Origin: a virus
Lineage: Duplodnaviria > Caudoviricetes
Direction: 5' to 3' (one strand)
Length of the DNA stretch: 64,000 bases
IMG/VR virus record: IMGVR_UViG_3300025838_000022
Location: 58,798 to 122,797 of that record
Shown: positions 1,212-63,665 of the stretch, one piece after another
Layout of the letters: each line of letters opens with the position of its first letter
How positions within the stretch are numbered: the first letter of the stretch is position 1
Program-made: the position numbers and the translations under genes
Notes under the pieces: model-generated
What the model was told of the DNA's origin: nothing
Database searches by the model: none
What the model saw: only the letters and a program-made list of their open reading frames with translations

Positions 1212-4200
1212 TGTCTATTATTCCTAACAATACAGATCCATTAAAAGATTATGTAACACCAAATGTTAACCCACCATTAACTATTAATGGTTTAGTTTTT
1301 AATAAGATCTACGGTTACACCGGCGTTGTTGATGCATTAAACAATACTACTTCATCATATTATAATGATCCAACAGTTAATACTGTAAGCACAAATAATG
1401 GTTTAATTAGTCTAAATAAAAACATTAACACGTATTGGATTTCTAATACTGATTTTGGTGGTAATAATAGTGCACCAGTTGTTTTAACGTATAATCTTGT
1501 TAATACAATTTACTACAATAATATTTCTTTTGATATTCTTAACGTGCCATGCTACGTAGAACTCTTGGATAATAATGGCAATAATCTACCAGGAGCTTCT
1601 ACGTTCACAATTGTTGGTGGCGATGATATTTTTACCAGAGACAACTGGATCAGATTAAACTATGACGCACCTACCAACCCTTATCCGGCAACAGTTTCGG
1701 GTACTGGTGGCACAAGCACTTTCTCATACCCCTTGACTGGCTTAACAAGTATTAAAGTCAGAATCACCCGAAACAAGCAGGTGCAGACTAGCAGCGCCGC
1801 ATTTGGTCTTGCAAATGTAGCATACTCTGTTGGCCTGCAAAACTTTAGAGTAAAACTAAACGTAAAAGGTTTGTCAGATATCCCATCTGCAGTGGTTAGC
1901 GGAACTCAAAATATTATCACACAAAACGGTTTTGGGTTTGTAGAAAGCTACGCTTACACAGCCAACAACCAAAGCAATATTTTTGTCAACGACTCAACGT
2001 ATTGGAAATCTTCACCGCAACCGACTAAAGACTCTGTTGTTTTCTTTTATGCAAAGATCAGCGACCCCACACCAACTGTTGTAAACCGCTTGTACATCGA
2101 TCCTATTTACAGTGGTTGTAAGTTTAACGTTTACTATACGACGCAAAGTACATCCAGTGGGACTGTAGACCCTGGAACTTTTACATGGACACCAATCCAA
2201 AGAGATTTTTCTCTGCGCAAAGGTATTTATAAAATTCCTAAAATTTCATGCACGTATTTGAAGTTTGAATTTACCTCTTTGGTGCCAGAAGCTTATGATT
2301 TGCCTTTTGACTCTGTGAATAGAACCATCAATGTTTTCCCATATGATGTTGAGCAGTACTACGACAACCTTGAACAGGATATCGCCAATGCCAACGCGGT
2401 GAAGTACTCAACATATGGGAACGCAAACCTTAGAACGCAACCACAGAACAGCAATCAGCTGAGTGCTTCTACCGTTTTTGGTGTTTCTAACAATACAATT
2501 GGGTCACAGAGTAATTGGCAAAGCCTTAGTCAACTTAATACGACACAACTTGGTAGCTTTACTACAACTAGTTTATCAACTAGTTCTCAAATTTTTGATC
2601 CAAGCATTAGTTACAAATTGTTAGATTCCAATGGCAATTATAACCAAACTTCTTATACGCAATTCTTGCAAAGACGCTTTTACAATACAAGAGTTCATAG
2701 CTATGCATCTATCAGTATTAATCAAACATGGCACCAGGCTTACTACGTTGGCATTAGATTTTTAAACTTTTTCTATGAGCAACGGTACGATGACCTACAA
2801 GCAATCCCAGGCCAGTTGATAGCAAAGAATGCTACAACCAGTGGATTTGTTTCTCAGGATGTTAATTACGTCGGTTTGAACCCTGACGATACGGCAACAA
2901 CACCTTGGTTTTCCACAATTGATACTTTTACCAGCTTTAATATCGCTGGACTTACAACTGACTGGAAAAGTTTTATTACACAGGGTGCTCCATTAAGCCA
3001 GGATCCAACCATCCTAAATGGTCCAGTCAATGGGAATTTATCTACAGCACAAATTGCCAGCATGGTCGTTGGCTACGGAACGACTCCACAGTACGTCGGG
3101 AATCTTGGCTCGAGCTCAATTTATTCTGTTTCTGGCACTACAAGTGGACAAACGTATGGTATTAAATCAATCGGGTATAACACAACAAATAATTTGCTAA
3201 ACTACTACGATGCAAACTTCTTGTCTACCAATGGTAACTGGTATGGGTTGGCATCAACAAGCGTAACTGGAACGTCGGTCAACTGGACCCAGACAATCAG
3301 TGGAGCAACCTACAGTGGCACCGCAAGCGGCATTACGGTGAGCGGAGGATCATACGTTGCTGCTTACAACTTTACTTTGCCCAATGTTTACAGCCCAAGC
3401 GGTACAACGCCATGGACTACGCAACTTGGTAGCTCATCGTTGGGTGTTGTTGGATTCGCCAGTTATGTACCAGCAACAGGCATTAATTATTACTTCTTAA
3501 CTAATGTGCAATCTACTGGAACACAAAGTGTAACAATGTACACGCGTTTTATTAACGCTTCTACAAGCGGTGTTATCGCAAACACTACGGTTACTGGTAG
3601 CACAGTATCCCTGTCCGCTGCATCTGGGTCTACTGTTATTACAGCAACTGGTACAAACTATAACTCAAGCATTCCAAGCAATACAATCCAGGTTGTGTTG
3701 AGTGGCTCTGCTGCTGTTCCGTATCAGGTATACCAAGCTGGTGTTTTTTCGACGCCAACCACTCAATGGATAAGCCCTTCTGACCGCACAAATATGCGTG
3801 TTAGTGGTGTTGCAAGAATGTTCTTGCCAGTAACAAACTATGGAACATACCGAATTAGTTTGTATGCAGTAAACACAACAGGAACAACAGTTGAAATTGC
3901 TTACAGAGTGTATCAGGGTAATCAACTGCCTTTGAATACTTGGTTTGATATAGAAGTTTTTAGTTACACGACAATTAACTACACAAGTTTTTATGCTCAA
4001 GTTCAGCAAACTAATACAGCTGTCAATGAGCAATTCTATGTTGCAATGTTGGCTCCTTTCTACCACCCTGTTCGTTATGAATACATCACCCAAAGCGGTG
4101 CTACTAACTGGCAACCCGTTATCTATGGTGTAAACAACCCGAATGTGTTTATCTCGACTGCCTCAGGATTGCCAGCAAGCGGCATTCAGGTACGCATGAC

Positions 4201-4435
4201 AGCATTGGACCCAAATGTCTACATTTCTGGAGTCAGTGTTGTCCCATACTACAAGCAGAACGCTTATTACGCCGGTCTCGATATCAACTACCTTGGAAAT
4301 GGTAAGACAAACGAATGGGAATCGCGTGTCAACGTCGCTAATAAACCATACTTCCAGCTAAACAGCAATTATTACCCGACAAAGTTTGCAATCAACAACA
4401 TTGCCAGTACGGTGACACCCTACATCCTGCATTGA
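1211..4435 (+). CDS. Large Ser/Thr/Asn-rich virion protein (baseplate/tail, beta-sandwich carbohydrate-binding-like domains)
   Basis: 1074 aa, very S/T/N/G-rich; two discoidin-like segments ('YWISNTD..PVVLTYNL', 'YWKSSPQP..VVFFY..VNRLYIDP'); tail-module context. Confidence 0.6.
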   Translation: MSIIPNNTDPLKDYVTPNVNPPLTINGLVFNKIYGYTGVVDALNNTTSSYYNDPTVNTVSTNNGLISLNKNINTYWISNTDFGGNNSAPVVLTYNLVNTIYYNNISFDILNVPCYVELLDNNGNNLPGASTFTIVGGDDIFTRDNWIRLNYDAPTNPYPATVSGTGGTSTFSYPLTGLTSIKVRITRNKQVQTSSAAFGLANVAYSVGLQNFRVKLNVKGLSDIPSAVVSGTQNIITQNGFGFVESYAYTANNQSNIFVNDSTYWKSSPQPTKDSVVFFYAKISDPTPTVVNRLYIDPIYSGCKFNVYYTTQSTSSGTVDPGTFTWTPIQRDFSLRKGIYKIPKISCTYLKFEFTSLVPEAYDLPFDSVNRTINVFPYDVEQYYDNLEQDIANANAVKYSTYGNANLRTQPQNSNQLSASTVFGVSNNTIGSQSNWQSLSQLNTTQLGSFTTTSLSTSSQIFDPSISYKLLDSNGNYNQTSYTQFLQRRFYNTRVHSYASISINQTWHQAYYVGIRFLNFFYEQRYDDLQAIPGQLIAKNATTSGFVSQDVNYVGLNPDDTATTPWFSTIDTFTSFNIAGLTTDWKSFITQGAPLSQDPTILNGPVNGNLSTAQIASMVVGYGTTPQYVGNLGSSSIYSVSGTTSGQTYGIKSIGYNTTNNLLNYYDANFLSTNGNWYGLASTSVTGTSVNWTQTISGATYSGTASGITVSGGSYVAAYNFTLPNVYSPSGTTPWTTQLGSSSLGVVGFASYVPATGINYYFLTNVQSTGTQSVTMYTRFINASTSGVIANTTVTGSTVSLSAASGSTVITATGTNYNSSIPSNTIQVVLSGSAAVPYQVYQAGVFSTPTTQWISPSDRTNMRVSGVARMFLPVTNYGTYRISLYAVNTTGTTVEIAYRVYQGNQLPLNTWFDIEVFSYTTINYTSFYAQVQQTNTAVNEQFYVAMLAPFYHPVRYEYITQSGATNWQPVIYGVNNPNVFISTASGLPASGIQVRMTALDPNVYISGVSVVPYYKQNAYYAGLDINYLGNGKTNEWESRVNVANKPYFQLNSNYYPTKFAINNIASTVTPYILH

Positions 4436-10571: not shown

Positions 10572-11399
10572 TTGAAAACCAGTATCGTAGTGACATCAAA
10601 AAATGATAACTATGGTGGTTATCTAAATCTTCGCGCTGCTTATGCGTTGAATCAAATGCTTAAGGTCTTTGATGAAGTCGTATACGTTGACTGGTGCTCG
10701 GATGATGACAATAGCTTAATCCACGATGTTAATCTTGATAAAACTGGTCGCCTAAAGCACATCCAGGTTACCAAGAAGGATGTTGCTAATATCAATCCTG
10801 ATCTTCTTGAGATACCAATCGTTGAAGTGCTTGGTAGAAATATTGGCGTTAGAAGGTCTAGTGGAGATTGGATTGTGTCAAGCAACATTGACATTCTCCC
10901 TGATAAACCTAACGTTTCTACACTGAACAAAGACATGATGTACGCAGCGCAACGCAGGAACGTACCACTTGATGTCACATTGAACGCACCAGAAAATTTC
11001 TTTAATTTCCTTCAAGAGAACCGTAACATGTTTGTGCAGGCTCAACGAATTTACGATACACATGCTGGAAGATACGACCCATGGTCTCTTACGGTGTGCT
11101 GTGGAGATTTCCAGCTGGCTCATAAAGATCTATGGCACAAAATGAAGGGCTTTGAAGAGACGCTTCTCTATAGAGATTGCGGTGATAGTAACGTCCTAAA
11201 AAAGGCTACTATTTATGGCAGCGGAGCAGATTTAATCTACTTAGATGTTTTTCACCTTGACCACGATGGTCACTTCTTAAACGTCGGTGGCGTGTCAAAA
11301 AAGAACGATTGGGATGAATCTGTAGGAAACTTTGAGTCTACAACAAATCCTGACACCTGGGGGCTTTCTGATTATCAATTCCATGAGGAGACATTGTGA
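10572..11399 (+). CDS. GT-A fold (GT2-like) glycosyltransferase
   Basis: 'SIVVTSKNDNYGG', 'YVDWCS', 'RNIGVRRSSGDWIVSSNIDI', 'GDFQL', 'GFEE'. Confidence 0.7.
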   Translation: MKTSIVVTSKNDNYGGYLNLRAAYALNQMLKVFDEVVYVDWCSDDDNSLIHDVNLDKTGRLKHIQVTKKDVANINPDLLEIPIVEVLGRNIGVRRSSGDWIVSSNIDILPDKPNVSTLNKDMMYAAQRRNVPLDVTLNAPENFFNFLQENRNMFVQAQRIYDTHAGRYDPWSLTVCCGDFQLAHKDLWHKMKGFEETLLYRDCGDSNVLKKATIYGSGADLIYLDVFHLDHDGHFLNVGGVSKKNDWDESVGNFESTTNPDTWGLSDYQFHEETL

Positions 11400-58160: not shown

Positions 58161-59624
58161 CTACAGACGACCAAGAAGCGCCTTGCGGATAGGACCGGCA
58201 GGCTTGTTGATAAGCTTACCAGCCTTGAACATCTTGACCGCTTCCTCGACGGAAGGGATCATGATGATCTTGTGCTTCTTGACCAGCTGAGCGCACTGGA
58301 GGATAATGTCGTCGTTCTGACCGCCACCGTCAGAGGTGACTTCACCATCTGAGACCCAGACGATTGGCTCGTTGGGGTGACGGTTCTTGATACCCCACAC
58401 CAGAGCAGGACCGTCGACGCCGTTGCCAGCACCACCGATATTTGGGATCTCACGTACACGCCAGCCACGTTTGGCGAGGAGCCACGCATTGGCAGAGGTG
58501 TAGTGAGTCTGACTGTATGCGAGGATGGTCGCAGCAGGCGCTGCCTCGACAATCGCTTCGATGTCTTGCTGTGACAGAGACATAGAACCTGAGATGTCGA
58601 CGATGACCATGCCACCCTTGACGCGTACCTTATTGGTAAAGATACGACGCTCGGGGTCAGTGTACCAACGGCTAACGTTGCCGAGCTTACGACCGACCAA
58701 GGCAGGCTTGCGCTTACGATTCATGAACCCCTCGACCTGGACAGACAGTGGAAGCGTGTCGTCAATGACAAGCTCCGCAAAGTCTCCATCCTCGTCGTGT
58801 GGGAACTCGTAGTCGTCAGGCAAGTCGTCCTCGAGTGGAGTCTGGTCAGGGTCAAGACGGTTAGCATCTTGCTCCGCCTGACCATACTCCTCAAGGATCT
58901 TGTCTTCCTCCTCCTGGCGCTGTTGGGCAACGCTGCTAGGAGAACGCCTACCGTTGGCATAGTTGGCAATCTCAGAGGCTGCAACAAGAGTGTTGTTGTA
59001 ACCCCTCGGACCCACTACGTCGCTGCTGTAGTGGTATGGCATGGTAGAGCCAAGGTCACCCGGTGTACCGTCAAAGATACTAGTGAGACGACCAGCAAGC
59101 TTACGCAGCATGTCGCTCCAATCTGGGTTCACAGAGCGTACGCCAGCAGCAAACGAATCGAATGCTGACTTGTTGGCGTAGTTACGCACGGTGAATTCAA
59201 CTGCATCTTCCCAGTCGTTAGGGCTGCCAGCAGTTGCCATACGGATACCTGACTTCTTCTCCGCACCGGTGGAGTCAAGCTCAAGACCCTTGATCTTGGC
59301 AAAAGGCTCAGTAACAGCGTTGATACGAGCCTCCTCCGCAAGATTGAGAAGAGCCCTGGTGACACCATTGTGCTTGTAAGACTCAGCCACTACCTTGGCA
59401 ACCTCCTCAGTCTGAAGACCGACGCGGGCGCGGATGAGCTCACGCAGCTGCGTACGACGGGACCAGTCGTCCCCCCGAAGGGGGACGGCCAGTACCTTCG
59501 CAGCCCAGTCGACACCTACACCCATCTGGCCCGTAGTGGGCTCGACAGTCCAGGTAGTCGTCTCGGCTATGTCGTCACGGAACGCAGTGATTGCCCCTAC
59601 AAGGGGCTTCTGCTCGTCAGCCAT
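58161..59624 (-). CDS. VWA (MIDAS) domain protein, partner of the MoxR ATPase
   Basis: 'IVDISGSM' (DxSxS), 'WVSDG'; N-terminal peptidase-like region with 'EEARIN'. Confidence 0.8.
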   Translation of the reverse strand: MADEQKPLVGAITAFRDDIAETTTWTVEPTTGQMGVGVDWAAKVLAVPLRGDDWSRRTQLRELIRARVGLQTEEVAKVVAESYKHNGVTRALLNLAEEARINAVTEPFAKIKGLELDSTGAEKKSGIRMATAGSPNDWEDAVEFTVRNYANKSAFDSFAAGVRSVNPDWSDMLRKLAGRLTSIFDGTPGDLGSTMPYHYSSDVVGPRGYNNTLVAASEIANYANGRRSPSSVAQQRQEEEDKILEEYGQAEQDANRLDPDQTPLEDDLPDDYEFPHDEDGDFAELVIDDTLPLSVQVEGFMNRKRKPALVGRKLGNVSRWYTDPERRIFTNKVRVKGGMVIVDISGSMSLSQQDIEAIVEAAPAATILAYSQTHYTSANAWLLAKRGWRVREIPNIGGAGNGVDGPALVWGIKNRHPNEPIVWVSDGEVTSDGGGQNDDIILQCAQLVKKHKIIMIPSVEEAVKMFKAGKLINKPAGPIRKALLGRL

Positions 59625-60382
59625 TACAGCGACACTTCCGTGCTAAGGGTGCCGATACGGATGGCGTCGATGATGGGCTCAGCCATCTTACCGAACACCA
59701 GCTTGGCAGCACGCTCAGTGGTGAACAGAGGGCTGTTACGCAGCGTCTGGAATTCCTTCCAGGCACGGAGCGAAGCACGCTCACCGGGACGACCAGCGAC
59801 GATGGTGGCAGCCAGCATGCGCAACTCTGGCGGCAATGCAGAGACCAACGCAGCTGGGTGAGCAGCGTCAATCTTGATTGCAACCGGGAAGCGGTCACGC
59901 AGCGGACCCTCAATCTCGTTGGGGTCCTCGAAGTTGGTGGTCATGATGGCAGAGAAGCCCTCACGCGGTAAGTGAACCTCACCGGTGTAAGGGTTCTTCC
60001 AGACCGCCGACTCCGGGCTGTCAAGGAACTTCATCAGCGTGGTGACAACGTCACCGCTGGCACGGTTGATCTCGTCAACAACGAGACGACCGCCAACAGT
60101 ACCGTCACCATCCCAGGTGATTGGCCCGATGCCCTTGACGTAGTTGAAACCACCACGCTCGTTGGGAAGCATAGAACCAACGATGTCAGCGTTGGTCATG
60201 TCCTCGGAGCAGAGGAGGGTCTCGAACCCAGCTGCATTGATGTGCAGGGTCTGGGCTGAATACGTCTTGCCAGTGCCGGGGGGACCGTAGAGGATGACAC
60301 GCTTGCAACCTGCAGCGAGCACATCGTTAAGGTCAATGAAGCACTGGGGAATCGGGATTCCCTCGATGAATTCAGTGGTCAT
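59624..60382 (-). CDS. MoxR/CbbQ-like AAA+ ATPase
   Basis: GPPGTGKT, 'VVDEINRA', 'MTTN', 'LRDRF'; coupled (TAATG) to the VWA gene. Confidence 0.88.
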   Translation of the reverse strand: MTTEFIEGIPIPQCFIDLNDVLAAGCKRVILYGPPGTGKTYSAQTLHINAAGFETLLCSEDMTNADIVGSMLPNERGGFNYVKGIGPITWDGDGTVGGRLVVDEINRASGDVVTTLMKFLDSPESAVWKNPYTGEVHLPREGFSAIMTTNFEDPNEIEGPLRDRFPVAIKIDAAHPAALVSALPPELRMLAATIVAGRPGERASLRAWKEFQTLRNSPLFTTERAAKLVFGKMAEPIIDAIRIGTLSTEVSL

Positions 60383-60452
60383 AATATGTTTCTCCCTGTG
60401 TTTAACGGTGCTTGGGAACACCGGGCACATACCTGGGTTGGTATGTGAACCG

Positions 60453-60523
60453 TACTGCAGGTGGGAATTGAACCCACAACCTACCTGGTTAACCAGGTTG
60501 CTCTACCATTGAGCTACTGCAGT
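60453..60523 (-). ncRNA. tRNA-like RNA with a non-canonical 6-nt palindromic anticodon loop
   Basis: ACTGCAG TA GCTC AATGGTA GAGC A ACCTG GTTAAC CAGGT AGGTT GTGGG TTCAATT CCCAC CTGCAGT A. Confidence 0.8.
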
Positions 60524-60529
60524 GACCTA

Positions 60530-61003
60530 CTACTTGGCTATAGCCTGGATCAGCATGGCCTTCGACTTGTTGTCGAATGAGATGGTTGCTGTCTTGTAAC
60601 CACGCTTGATAGCTTCACGGTACATTCGAGTACGCATGTTGTCATGTCCGAACTTCTTGAATGGAATCAACGATTCAAGGTCGGAGTACGGGACAACATG
60701 GGTCTGACCGTCAAGGATGGCGTCGAGCCACACCTTGTGCTGCTTCCAACGGATGTGCGTTGCTGCACGCATTGGCTTCTTGTGAGTAGCCTTGACTGCG
60801 TTGACTGCCTTGACAATCTCGTCAACAGCAATCGCCCGTGGAGCTGGTGTTGGTGCGGGAGTCTCGTTGTGACTGCTCGTCTTGAATGATTCGATGAGCT
60901 CGATCACCTTGATAACTTCACCGCGAGTGGCAGGACGCTCAAGTACCGTGTCAGTTGCAGCCAACACGCTCTTGATTGTCTCACTCATCTTGTTAACGCT
61001 CAT
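60530..61003 (-). CDS. Hypothetical protein
   Basis: ORF with an AAGGAG RBS. Confidence 0.6.
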   Translation of the reverse strand: MSVNKMSETIKSVLAATDTVLERPATRGEVIKVIELIESFKTSSHNETPAPTPAPRAIAVDEIVKAVNAVKATHKKPMRAATHIRWKQHKVWLDAILDGQTHVVPYSDLESLIPFKKFGHDNMRTRMYREAIKRGYKTATISFDNKSKAMLIQAIAK

Positions 61004-61149
61004 GGATTTCTCCTTGATGTTTGCCCTTACTGGTTTACTACAGAGTAGCAGGGGTGATGACTACTCCGATGCACACACGAATAGCCATGATACTCGTGTG
61101 TACATCGCAGTAGCCGGGCAATACAACACCCGGCCCTGCTTGTTGCTAA

Positions 61150-61467
61150 CTACAAGAACTCGACGGGGTCACGGTCCTCAAAGATTGCTTCGAGGTCAGC
61201 GTACGTATAGTCCTCAGGGTTCTCCTGATAACGCTTGAGTGCAGCCTCAATGCGTTCATCCTGGTTACTATCTCCGTCATCTTCCTCGTCATCGGAAATG
61301 TTCTCGAAGATAGGAACAGCCCAGTCAGGAACCCATACTTCGTCCTGACCATAAGCAATTGATTCCTTAGTTGCTTCGTGCAAGCACTCTAGAAGCGCCC
61401 TCTGGACATTGTTCCAACGTTCAGCAAGTTCCTTACTGATCGGTGGGTTGTCAACTGGTTCACTCAT
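61150..61467 (-). CDS. Acidic hypothetical protein
   Basis: ATG at 61467 after AAGGAGG. Confidence 0.6.
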   Translation of the reverse strand: MSEPVDNPPISKELAERWNNVQRALLECLHEATKESIAYGQDEVWVPDWAVPIFENISDDEEDDGDSNQDERIEAALKRYQENPEDYTYADLEAIFEDRDPVEFL

Positions 61468-62189: not shown

Positions 62190-62486
62190 CTATGCCCACT
62201 CCTGTTTCTCACCCACGTAACGAGCATAGATGGTGTGAGTACCGTCTTCCATACGTCGTGATGTCACCTGGTAGGGCAACAGCTTACGGTTGATACCCTT
62301 CAATGCTTTGATGTTGATTCCACAAAGAGTGCAAAGCACAGTGGGGCTGGTAGGTGATTTGAGTTGAGTTGAGTACTCGAACCAGACACCTGGGTTGCTC
62401 ATGAGCACCTCACGACGCTCTTGAGCATTGTTGCGTGAACCACGCTTGATTGGGCCGGGCGCAGCCTGCTTCATTGTAATGGCCAT
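62190..62486 (-). CDS. Hypothetical protein
   Basis: 'L.SNPG.W.....YARYVG'; strong RBS. Confidence 0.6.
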   Translation of the reverse strand: MAITMKQAAPGPIKRGSRNNAQERREVLMSNPGVWFEYSTQLKSPTSPTVLCTLCGINIKALKGINRKLLPYQVTSRRMEDGTHTIYARYVGEKQEWA

Positions 62487-62578
62487 GATAACTCCTTATC
62501 AGTTGGCAATCTGTAGCTTACTTAGCTACGTTCTCAACCCCACCACTCACTATGGAGTGGTGAGGCCTTTGAGAATTG

Positions 62579-62854
62579 TTATTCGGCGTCACCGTCTTCT
62601 AACATCTGTGCCCAGATGCCAAACATCTCGTCGACGTCCTGTCCGATGGGCCGCTTGTACGCCTTGATGCGATCGAGAATCTCTCTCGAACGCCCCATGG
62701 CTTGATCCATTATCTCGTCGCTGAATGGAAGTTCGCTATCCATTGATTTGATTGCTTCGTTCATGGCAGACATCGTTGTCTCAAACGTACCCAGGATTGT
62801 ACGAATATCTTCATCCGTAAATCCTGCGTCAATTAAACGTTGGGTGTTAAGCAT
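62579..62854 (-). CDS. Hypothetical protein
   Basis: ATG at 62854 after AGGAG. Confidence 0.55.
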   Translation of the reverse strand: MLNTQRLIDAGFTDEDIRTILGTFETTMSAMNEAIKSMDSELPFSDEIMDQAMGRSREILDRIKAYKRPIGQDVDEMFGIWAQMLEDGDAE

Positions 62855-63314
62855 GTTGTCTCTCCTGTATTGCTTTGATGTCACCCCAGCCGTAAAGGTC
62901 TGGGTGGTACAGTGCTTGTCCTTGATTGAACATCACATGTTTGAATGACATCCCAATCTTGCCCGGTATGTCCTGACAAGTCGGAAGTTGTATGATGTCG
63001 AGGTTAAGTTGCTCCTCGCGTACCACACGCTTGAGATTGTGTAAGTAGCCCATAACAATCTCAAGAGGATTACTTACAGCGCAGACATTCAGTGCTGGAA
63101 TGTCCTGCTTGAGAACTGGTAGGTTGTGCTCCATAACCCAGGTACCACCTGAGTCTGCAGCCTTCAGCATGATTGCTGTGTAGACGTCCCAGCAGTCGAT
63201 GATTGCTAGATGGAAGTGGTACAGCTTGTCGAACCGGTACTTGAAACAAGTTGGTTCGAGCATGTCTGTGCCCTCTTCCATGGATATGTCATGTATAGTT
63301 AATTCATCACTCAT
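62847..63314 (-). CDS. Hypothetical protein
   Basis: 155-aa ORF. Confidence 0.6.
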   Translation of the reverse strand: MSDELTIHDISMEEGTDMLEPTCFKYRFDKLYHFHLAIIDCWDVYTAIMLKAADSGGTWVMEHNLPVLKQDIPALNVCAVSNPLEIVMGYLHNLKRVVREEQLNLDIIQLPTCQDIPGKIGMSFKHVMFNQGQALYHPDLYGWGDIKAIQERQHA

Positions 63315-63368
63315 GGCGTGACTCTTTCTTACTAAATGTGTAGCTATTTGCTACGGGTACTGCTTTTG

Positions 63369-63665
63369 TTACTGCACCTTGCGCTTTGAGATACGCACTA
63401 AATGCGCTTCTTGACCCATCTTCTCACCGTCGATGATGTCATACTCGATGAATGAAGCGACGTAGTCACCATCTTCATCAAGATCCCACCCCCTGCTAAT
63501 GGGCAAGACTTCCTTGCCGGGCCGGGGGGTTGAGTACCACTTCTCCACCGCAATTTGGGCATCCTTCAATTCCTTGAATAGACCAAACCAATGGATGGAC
63601 AAGATATTGATACCCTGTTCGTGAGCGTGGGCGCTAACCGTTGTTTCTACTGCCCATACCTTCAT
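63369..63665 (-). CDS. Hypothetical protein
   Basis: ORF after AGGAGG. Confidence 0.55.
   Translation of the reverse strand: MKVWAVETTVSAHAHEQGINILSIHWFGLFKELKDAQIAVEKWYSTPRPGKEVLPISRGWDLDEDGDYVASFIEYDIIDGEKMGQEAHLVRISKRKVQ

Follow-up and report, generated by a model that had tools for sequence, protein, structure and literature searches.

Organization of the locus

The window, i.e., the whole 64,000-nt stretch of viral DNA (Caudoviricetes) that was analysed, is part of a 122.8-kb contig. On its minus strand, a tRNA-like element is located between a short upstream gene and a pair of genes that encode an ATPase and a vWA-domain protein. In the order of transcription, the locus contains the following features.

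60530..61003 (-): upstream gene, 157 aa, with its stop codon 6 nt before the element (ORF list; homologous upstream genes in 6 relatives)
60453..60523 (-): tRNA-like element of 71 nt, full cloverleaf with a sealed anticodon arm (ARAGORN, Rfam RF00005, syntenic homologues)
60424..60451 (-): hairpin 1, CGG..CACAUACC-AACCCA-GGUAUGUG.CCG (MFE; C-G/U-A covariation 5:5 at one pair)
60406..60423 (-): hairpin 2, core CGGUG-UUCCCAAG-CACCG (MFE; G-C/A-U covariation 6:4)
60392..60396 (-): Shine-Dalgarno sequence GGGAG of the ATPase gene, aligning with AAGGA of relatives
59624..60382 (-): AAA+ (AAA_5, MoxR-like) ATPase gene, 252 aa, ATG at 60382 (Pfam PF07728, 6.5e-15; homologues)
58161..59624 (-): 487-aa partner with a helical N-domain and a C-terminal vWA domain with a DISGS MIDAS (alignment, model, weak vWA fold matches, phrog_33218)

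The ATPase gene and the gene of its 487-aa partner overlap by one base. The DISGS (DxSxS) MIDAS motif is invariant in the alignment of the partner protein, and the matches of its model to vWA-domain folds (Foldseek) are weak but consistent. An earlier reading of this DNA, made from the letters alone and here referred to as the sequence-only reading, had placed the element in the leader of a MoxR-VWA operon. This is a fair description because of the AAA_5/MoxR-like match of the ATPase, the invariant MIDAS motif, and the weak, consistent fold matches of the partner. The N-terminal domain of the partner comprises ~200 residues that are all-helical in the model (residues ~50-246, pLDDT 70-90), and neither Pfam nor Foldseek gave a match to it.

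The ATPase gene most likely begins at ATG 60382 and not at the listed position 60430, judging from the alignment and the ribosome-binding site: GGGAG precedes ATG 60382, and this start is aligned in all relatives. In the longer ORF from 60430, the first 16 codons overlap hairpins 1 and 2. With the start at 60382, the leader that follows the element is 70 nt long, with two conserved hairpins in it. Folding of the 150-nt leader of the window gave the cloverleaf and the two hairpins (MFE, z = -3.4). Across relatives, hairpins 1 and 2 are 92% paired with both-side changes in 5 of 13 pairs, and hairpin 1 starts 1-3 nt past the discriminator among the carriers (1-2 nt past it in the window). All carriers of the element share one cassette order, namely, stop codon, element, hairpin 1, hairpin 2, an unstructured A-rich spacer, the Shine-Dalgarno sequence, and the ATG. 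In every carrier, the element starts 6-16 nt past the upstream stop codon, including those in which the upstream genes are unrelated (L194, L202/203). No promoter was detected in the gap between the upstream stop codon and the element, which is too short to hold one.

The loop of hairpin 2 in the window (60406-60423) contains UCCC, which is complementary to GGGA of the Shine-Dalgarno sequence (60392-60396). A conserved pairing between the two was considered and rejected, as the loops of the relatives (e.g., UCACCAAG and AUAACAAG) have no more than 2-3 bases that could pair with their own Shine-Dalgarno sequences in the alignment, inspected by eye. Other structured leaders were observed in the same region. 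The 146-nt gap upstream of the 157-aa ORF (60998-61155, minus strand) adopts a highly stable branched fold that is not tRNA-like (-64.6 kcal/mol for 158 nt), in which a 17-bp hairpin is nested within an outer helix. Hairpins with AAGUA/AAAUA pentaloops recur in the leaders of the window at 62481-62585 and 63309-63374 (both minus strand); such a hairpin is also found right after a minihelix of the relative L204 (362-380) and as the 'anticodon arm' of the relative L206. It is possible that these represent a shared protein-binding (boxB-like) hairpin.

Structure of the tRNA-like element

The element is built from the following parts.

60517..60523 (-): acceptor stem, 5' strand ACUGCAG, pairing with 60454-60460 (7 bp; double changes in 6/7 pairs across relatives)
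60500..60514 (-): D arm GCUC-AAUGGUA-GAGC with G18 G19 (GG invariant among 12 variants, stem 100% paired)
60483..60498 (-): anticodon arm ACCUGG-UUAA-CCAGGU, a palindrome (5 bp and a 6-nt loop, or 6 bp and a 4-nt loop)
60461..60477 (-): T arm GUGGG-UUCAAUU-CCCAC with the GGTTCRANYCC motif (double changes in 3/5 pairs; G-U wobbles that fit the transcribed strand only)
60454..60460 (-): acceptor stem, 3' strand CUGCAGU (covariation across relatives)
60453 (-): discriminator A (CGG next, no CCA)

Read from 60523 to 60453 on the minus strand, the order is ACUGCAG, UA, GCUC-AAUGGUA-GAGC, A, ACCUGG-UUAA-CCAGGU, AGGUU (the variable loop), GUGGG-UUCAAUU-CCCAC, CUGCAGU, and A. The sequence-only reading had described the acceptor, D arm, variable loop, and T arm as canonical, and the sequence itself, ARAGORN, and Rfam all agree with it. 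With the Rfam tRNA model (RF00005), the element scored 59.9 bits against a threshold of 29 bits (E=1.9e-10 for the 64-kb window); it has the 7-bp acceptor, the G18G19 D arm, and the UUCRANY T arm of this family, and only the anticodon loop is 1 nt short in the alignment. The GGTTCRANYCC motif that is known from t-elements is present as GGTTCAATTCC (60463-60473) inside the T arm (60461-60477).

A decoding loop of 7 nt with U33, a purine at position 37, and a 3-nt anticodon is lacking. Instead, the 16-nt palindrome at 60483-60498, ACCTGGTTAACCAGGT, which as DNA contains GTTAAC, leaves either the 6-nt loop GUUAAC or, when the closing G-C pair forms, the 4-nt loop UUAA, exactly as the sequence-only reading had it, and a G occupies the U33 position before UUA. 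ARAGORN, from which an undetermined call had been expected, returned 'tRNA-??? anticodon (ta)', i.e., a 2-base 'anticodon'. Likewise lacking is what would mark a frameshift or nonsense suppressor, namely, a loop of canonical size or expanded to 8-9 nt whose anticodon is conserved and matches a target codon. CCA is not encoded, as had been stated: the discriminator A is followed by CGG.

The best database matches of the element are ordinary phage tRNA-Asn and tRNA-Met genes. The window itself contains four ordinary tRNAs on the plus strand at 14.6-15.5 kb (ARAGORN), and the earlier statement that the element lies about 45 kb from this cluster and on the opposite strand is accurate. The whole contig encodes eight ordinary tRNAs (four of them outside the window) in addition to the tRNA-like element, and a strict scan of this genome gave no tRNA-like or minihelix module besides these nine.

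Comparison of the anticodon arm among relatives

Loci with homologues of the ATPase were gathered from IMG/VR, JGI metagenomes, and public assemblies. Most loci with an ATPase identity of 55-77% hold a tRNA-like element at the same site. The comparison covered 14 cloverleaf versions, 13 located upstream of the ATPase/vWA gene pair and one at a second site in the relative G002. None of the 14 has a U33-NNN-R37 loop. Comparing the loop among related phages was the test that the sequence-only reading had set beforehand, and the result favours a real, non-decoding element over an ordinary tRNA. The loops of the relatives are 3, 4, 5, 7, or 8 nt long with unrelated sequences, while the anticodon helix of the cloverleaf versions is perfectly paired and often lengthened. 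The arms found include CUACACC-(CAU/AUU/AAU/AAC)-GGUGUAG (7 bp and 3 nt), UCUAGU-UCA-GCUAGA, CACAGU-AUUA-ACUGUG, UCUAC-UUA-GUAGA (in a 67-nt element that ARAGORN missed), AUACACU-AAGUA-AGUGUAU, and GCGAAC-GUAU-GUUCGU, as well as two arms with 8-nt loops and one with a 7-nt loop that has C33. Arms of the CC-NNN-GG group retain the canonical length of 17 nt; their middle triplet varies freely, yet both C-G pairs that close the loop are maintained, a pattern indicative of selection on loop closure rather than on an anticodon.

The comparison bears on further proposals of the sequence-only reading. The perfect palindrome is limited to the window and its relative with a 97% identical ATPase; the other arms are non-palindromic (e.g., CAU, AUU, UCA, AAGUA), which speaks against self-dimerisation as a feature of the family. 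Ochre suppression or frameshifting did not withstand the comparison, as UUA is not conserved, U33 is missing in the relatives, and the loops range from 3 to 8 nt. The 97% relative (L002) comes from a different sample and has the same palindromic arm together with one different T-loop base, and therefore the short loop is not an assembly error.

A version from a 60% relative (L292:556-630) was observed to have the 7-nt loop GCUAGGG with C33; it is called tRNA-Leu(UAG) by ARAGORN despite having no long variable arm, and it is the only version that encodes CCA after the discriminator.

Selection on the acceptor, D, and T parts

For the remainder of the cloverleaf, 12 distinct element versions were aligned with MAFFT, and 16 pairs of the acceptor, D, and T stems were scored. 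These stems are 96.9% paired, and double (compensatory) changes were found in 11 of the 16 pairs. Covariation as high as that observed was reached in 0 of 500 shuffles, and slid controls were 36-52% paired. The claim that the intact pairing argues against simple decay is hereby substantiated. G18G19 and the UUCRANY T loop are kept, and the L-shape determinants U8 and A14 are maintained. The acceptor sequence and the discriminator are variable (A or G; A1-U72 or U1-A72). One variant, in L206, has a degenerate T loop. Because of the stem covariation and of G-U wobbles that fit the transcribed strand only, pseudogene decay and a purely DNA-level palindrome are regarded as ruled out. The window element is a genuine and conserved feature other than a decoding tRNA.

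Reduction and loss of the element

In a tree of the ATPase, all carriers of the element fall in a single clade (support 95/92). Within it, the subclade of L210, L202, and L203 (98/92) has lost the D and anticodon arms, and a minihelix of 42-45 nt that consists of the acceptor and the T arm, joined by a linker of 10-13 nt, is left. The T stems of these minihelices still covary (GUGGG/CCCAC, UCAGG/CCUGA, and UCAAG/CUUGA), and their acceptors are ACUGCAG and UCCCCGA. Three close relatives contain no recognisable element, namely, L205 and L211, which lie inside the carrier clade, and L293, which the tree does not include. One gene tree hence displays a graded series of sealed cloverleaf, 42-nt minihelix with a UGGU linker, and absence, and the coaxial acceptor/T helix is the part that is always retained wherever the element exists.

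Upstream of the ATPase in L293 (56% identity), the leader at 2040-2183 has no T loop and folds into a three-way junction with the outer stem CCCUGG/CCAGGG; two hairpins lie inside, the second of which abuts the 3' strand like a T arm. This junction may have arisen from the tRNA-like element by further change. Among ATPase homologues below ~55% identity, no tRNA-like element was found upstream, and some have plain promoters. In L131 and L132 (46-49% identity), for example, near-consensus TTGACA-N17-TATAAT promoters without a tRNA-like element were observed directly upstream of the ATPase gene.

Modules in other leaders and the putative host

In several relatives, the element is not restricted to the ATPase leader. 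L204 carries tRNA-like modules in four consecutive intergenic leaders (296-410, 805-958, 1702-1850, and 2336-2505): three D-stem-less modules of ~50-60 nt with a UGGU-containing linker (310-360, 832-881, and 1717-1776) and one full cloverleaf (2351-2424). Folding showed one or two hairpins downstream of each of these, and then an A-rich spacer and an RBS of the AAGAAGGAA type. In the early arm of G001 (116 kb; L291, minus strand), minihelices are found at 3819-3859, 4300-4340, and 10702-10745, i.e., within 7 kb and on the strand of the ATPase; their linkers include UGGUCGUAGA and AUGGUUGUAA, and the one module that was folded has a hairpin, an A-rich spacer, and an RBS downstream. G002 (132 kb) contains, in its early arm, a second sealed cloverleaf with the arm GCGAAC-GUAU-GUUCGU at 111452-111521 (L290:3453-3522), 5.8 kb upstream, and a further tRNA-like unit is present in L202 (78-135). 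GG occurs in every minihelix linker and UGGU in most of them, and it is plausible that the UGGU linker acts as a stand-in for the docking of the D-loop G18G19 on the T loop.

Beyond these relatives, little related sequence was retrieved. Among cultured phages, megablast with 12 kb of sequence found nothing similar, and tblastn with the ATPase found a single weak match, to an Actinomycetia phage. A pattern search for the acceptor plus the D arm returned known relatives only, and one with a 14-mer pattern hit mainly coding DNA that is unrelated. The Rpf-like (PF06737) genes in relatives and the weak Actinomycetia-phage match are no more than a hint of an actinobacterial host.

A possible role as intercistronic punctuation

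RNase P, RNase Z, and the CCA-adding enzyme recognise their substrates through the acceptor/T minihelix, and a hairpin at the 5' end of an mRNA is a classic protection from 5'-end-dependent decay. We propose, with a probability of about one half, that the element is a non-decoding, tRNA-like 'punctuation' signal for the host RNase P and RNase Z, with the adjacent hairpins shielding the new 5' end. Processing by these enzymes was among the functions suggested by the sequence-only reading, and the comparative data favour it, the cleavage itself being a prediction. It is favoured because the intercistronic position is conserved, selection is seen only on the acceptor, T arm, and elbow, the element has been reduced to a minihelix, and similar modules are present in other leaders.

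To the observed conservation, covariation, loss of decoding features, position, and repeated use, the proposal adds cleavages, the responsible enzymes, and stabilisation by the hairpins, which would operate as follows. The element would form part of an early, polycistronic transcript. Its 5' end (+1), a few nucleotides past the upstream stop codon, would be the cut site of RNase P, so that the upstream mRNA would be left almost without a 3' UTR, and RNase Z, or an equivalent 3' pathway (endo- or exonucleolytic), would cut after the discriminator. The two cuts would separate the upstream cistron from the ATPase-vWA mRNA, whose new 5' end would lie at the foot of hairpin 1. Hairpins 1 and 2 would then protect this end against 5'-end-dependent decay, to be followed by the unstructured A-rich spacer and the ribosome-binding site.

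Certain findings do not sit easily with a punctuation role, i.e., the lack of the element in the close relatives L205, L211, and L293, and the degenerate T loop of L206. Moreover, the sealed, lengthened anticodon helix and the D arm exceed what a cut site needs and would be unexplained if the element were a cut site alone. Their upkeep could be due to robustness of folding, to the avoidance of charging, ribosome entry, or anticodon nucleases, or to a role in trans.

Comparison with known systems

In mitochondria, tRNAs that are located between coding regions are excised by tRNA-processing enzymes, a principle known as tRNA punctuation. These tRNAs also decode, whereas the phage units cannot. 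The mascRNA/MEN-beta modules and the TMERs of murid herpesvirus 68 are non-aminoacylated tRNA mimics that recruit RNase P or RNase Z to a longer transcript, and TMERs carry one or two stem-loops behind the tRNA mimic, similar to the phage cassette. However, these systems are eukaryotic and nuclear, and the downstream hairpins of the phage cassette precede an mRNA and are not miRNA precursors. The mascRNA-menRNA model (RF01684) gave 19.3 bits for the window element and did not reach its threshold of 42.5 bits.

A closer likeness may exist to the t-elements of plant mitochondria, which are non-canonical cloverleaves with a GGTTCRANYCC motif that are cleaved by RNase P and RNase Z and whose ends match the termini of mRNAs (Forner et al. 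2007, PMC1920247). Like these, the phage element is a non-canonical cloverleaf with the same motif at a cistron boundary of a (presumed) polycistronic transcript (PMC1920247); in the window it lies on the same strand as both neighbours, 6 nt past one stop codon and 70 nt before the next start codon. The creation of mRNA 3' and 5' ends through RNase P/Z cutting is established for t-elements (PMC1920247) and would have its counterpart in the phage. In plant mitochondria, simpler acceptor-like stem-loops do the same job (PMC1920247), which may be compared with the phage minihelices. The likeness is one of functional analogy only, as t-elements belong to an organelle and not to a bacterial phage and there is no homology. 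Unlike t-elements, the phage element belongs to a cassette of fixed layout, in which one or two hairpins come immediately past the discriminator, and it forms a graded reduction series.

RNase P is known to cut non-tRNA transcripts of phages and bacteria, e.g., the precursor of the C4 antisense RNA of P1/P7, the phage M3 RNA, and operon mRNAs, including their intercistronic regions (PMC11143913). Those substrates are hairpin- or pseudoknot-like and mostly isolated, whereas the phage element belongs to a conserved cloverleaf family with a T loop and an elbow that occurs in several leaders. YrlA-type Y RNAs, which act with Ro60/Rsr, likewise place a tRNA-mimicking module beside the gene of a vWA protein in bacteria and phages (RF02553; PMC4201824). 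Their topology is opposite: the phage element ends at the acceptor stem and its anticodon end is closed. A Ro60/Y-RNA reading was rejected, since the YrlA model (RF02553) gave 13.7 bits for the window element against a threshold of 69 bits, and no TROVE/Ro60 domain was found in the nearby vWA protein by Pfam, NCBIfam, or PDB sequence search, with Foldseek giving weak vWA matches only.

Alternative explanations

The conserved U8, A14, G18G19, and T loop, together with the paired and often lengthened anticodon helix, go beyond the needs of RNase P/Z and would also suit an excised RNA of ~71 nt that acts in trans, either as a regulator or as a decoy or sponge for host factors that bind the acceptor, T arm, or elbow. 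Candidate targets would be tRNA-targeting toxins, defence proteins, and CCA-adding or modification enzymes, and the intergenic site would be a mere means of expression. We consider such a product possible but rather unlikely, as one subclade does without the D and anticodon arms, the variable acceptor sequence and discriminator imply no single sequence-specific partner, and the invariable order of the cassette (stop codon, element, hairpin, spacer, RBS) favours a role in cis. The anticodon arm, at which tRNA-directed nucleases usually act, is less conserved than any other part of the element. The decoy for anticodon nucleases in the sequence-only reading is made improbable by this lack of conservation, while a decoy for acceptor- or elbow-binding factors could still be at work. 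A role in cis may, in turn, be exerted without cleavage, through blocking Rho loading or polarity between the cistrons, insulation of translation, or the binding of a phage protein for autoregulation, for which an N-like factor or the ATPase/vWA pair might be candidates. The constant association of the element with the ATPase leader and two further hairpins would agree with this, as would the abundance of conserved hairpins, including AAGUA pentaloops, in the leaders of this genome arm. It is nevertheless improbable, for it requires neither the T loop nor the GG elbow of the tRNA shape, relatives also have this shape in front of unrelated genes, and no conserved single-stranded motif is available for a protein.

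A formerly decoding tRNA gene that has lost its function and is now drifting would agree with the best database matches of the element, which are ordinary phage tRNA-Asn and tRNA-Met genes, with its loss in some relatives, and with the damaged T loop of L206. Among ATPases that are only 55-77% identical (the 97% strain aside), however, the stems remain 96.9% paired with 11 of 16 pairs doubly changed, and even the minihelices covary. Neutral decay breaks stems and does not repair them. The covariation test that could refute a dying gene was run and went against it, with a signal far above the shuffled and slid controls, so that this reading is very improbable. A working tRNA with an odd loop, i.e., an ochre suppressor reading through UUA, a frameshifter, or a 2- or 4-base decoder, is barely credible: UUA is present in the loop and two relatives have 8-nt loops as in frameshift suppressors, but neither the length nor the sequence of the loop is conserved among syntenic relatives, which implies no shared decoding function, and identity elements of the acceptor are not conserved either. 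The chance that the arm reflects a 1-nt deletion in the assembly, or a palindrome that functions at the DNA level as an operator or restriction site, is negligible. The arm is indeed a perfect 16-bp DNA palindrome with GTTAAC; however, the independent contig L002 has the same arm with differences elsewhere, including the one T-loop base, the palindrome is absent from other lineages, and the G-U pairs of the T stem fit the transcribed strand only. Lastly, a scar of a mobile element in the anticodon loop was considered and rejected, as no insert, repeat, or nuclease gene was found at the site in any relative, and perfect helices would not survive as a scar.

Implications

The element is best filed as a phage analogue, by function, of t-elements and tRNA punctuation. 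On a wider scale, it is tentatively proposed, at slightly under even confidence, that freshwater uncultured (probably actinobacterial) phages may run a mitochondria-like tRNA punctuation, in which sealed cloverleaves and ~42-nt minihelices with a UGGU elbow mimic would stand between early cistrons, each fused to a 5'-protective hairpin, and the host RNase P/Z would do the cutting and bring about differential mRNA stabilisation. A literature search, which was incomplete in coverage, found no description of such a punctuation system in phages.

Phage tRNA genes are usually read as devices for codon supply or against defence. Here, the tRNA shape is under clear selection while its decoding part is sealed, resized, or discarded, and the case contributes a clear positional logic and a reduction series. 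If the elements are RNase P/Z cut sites, these phages would punctuate their polycistronic RNA in the manner of mitochondria and some eukaryotic viruses. In that event, some of the tRNAs counted in phage genomes would be mis-annotated, processing sites would have to be added to the operon maps of such phages, and the compact module of 42-71 nt with its hairpin would serve, as it stands, to set how stable cistrons are relative to one another in bacteria.
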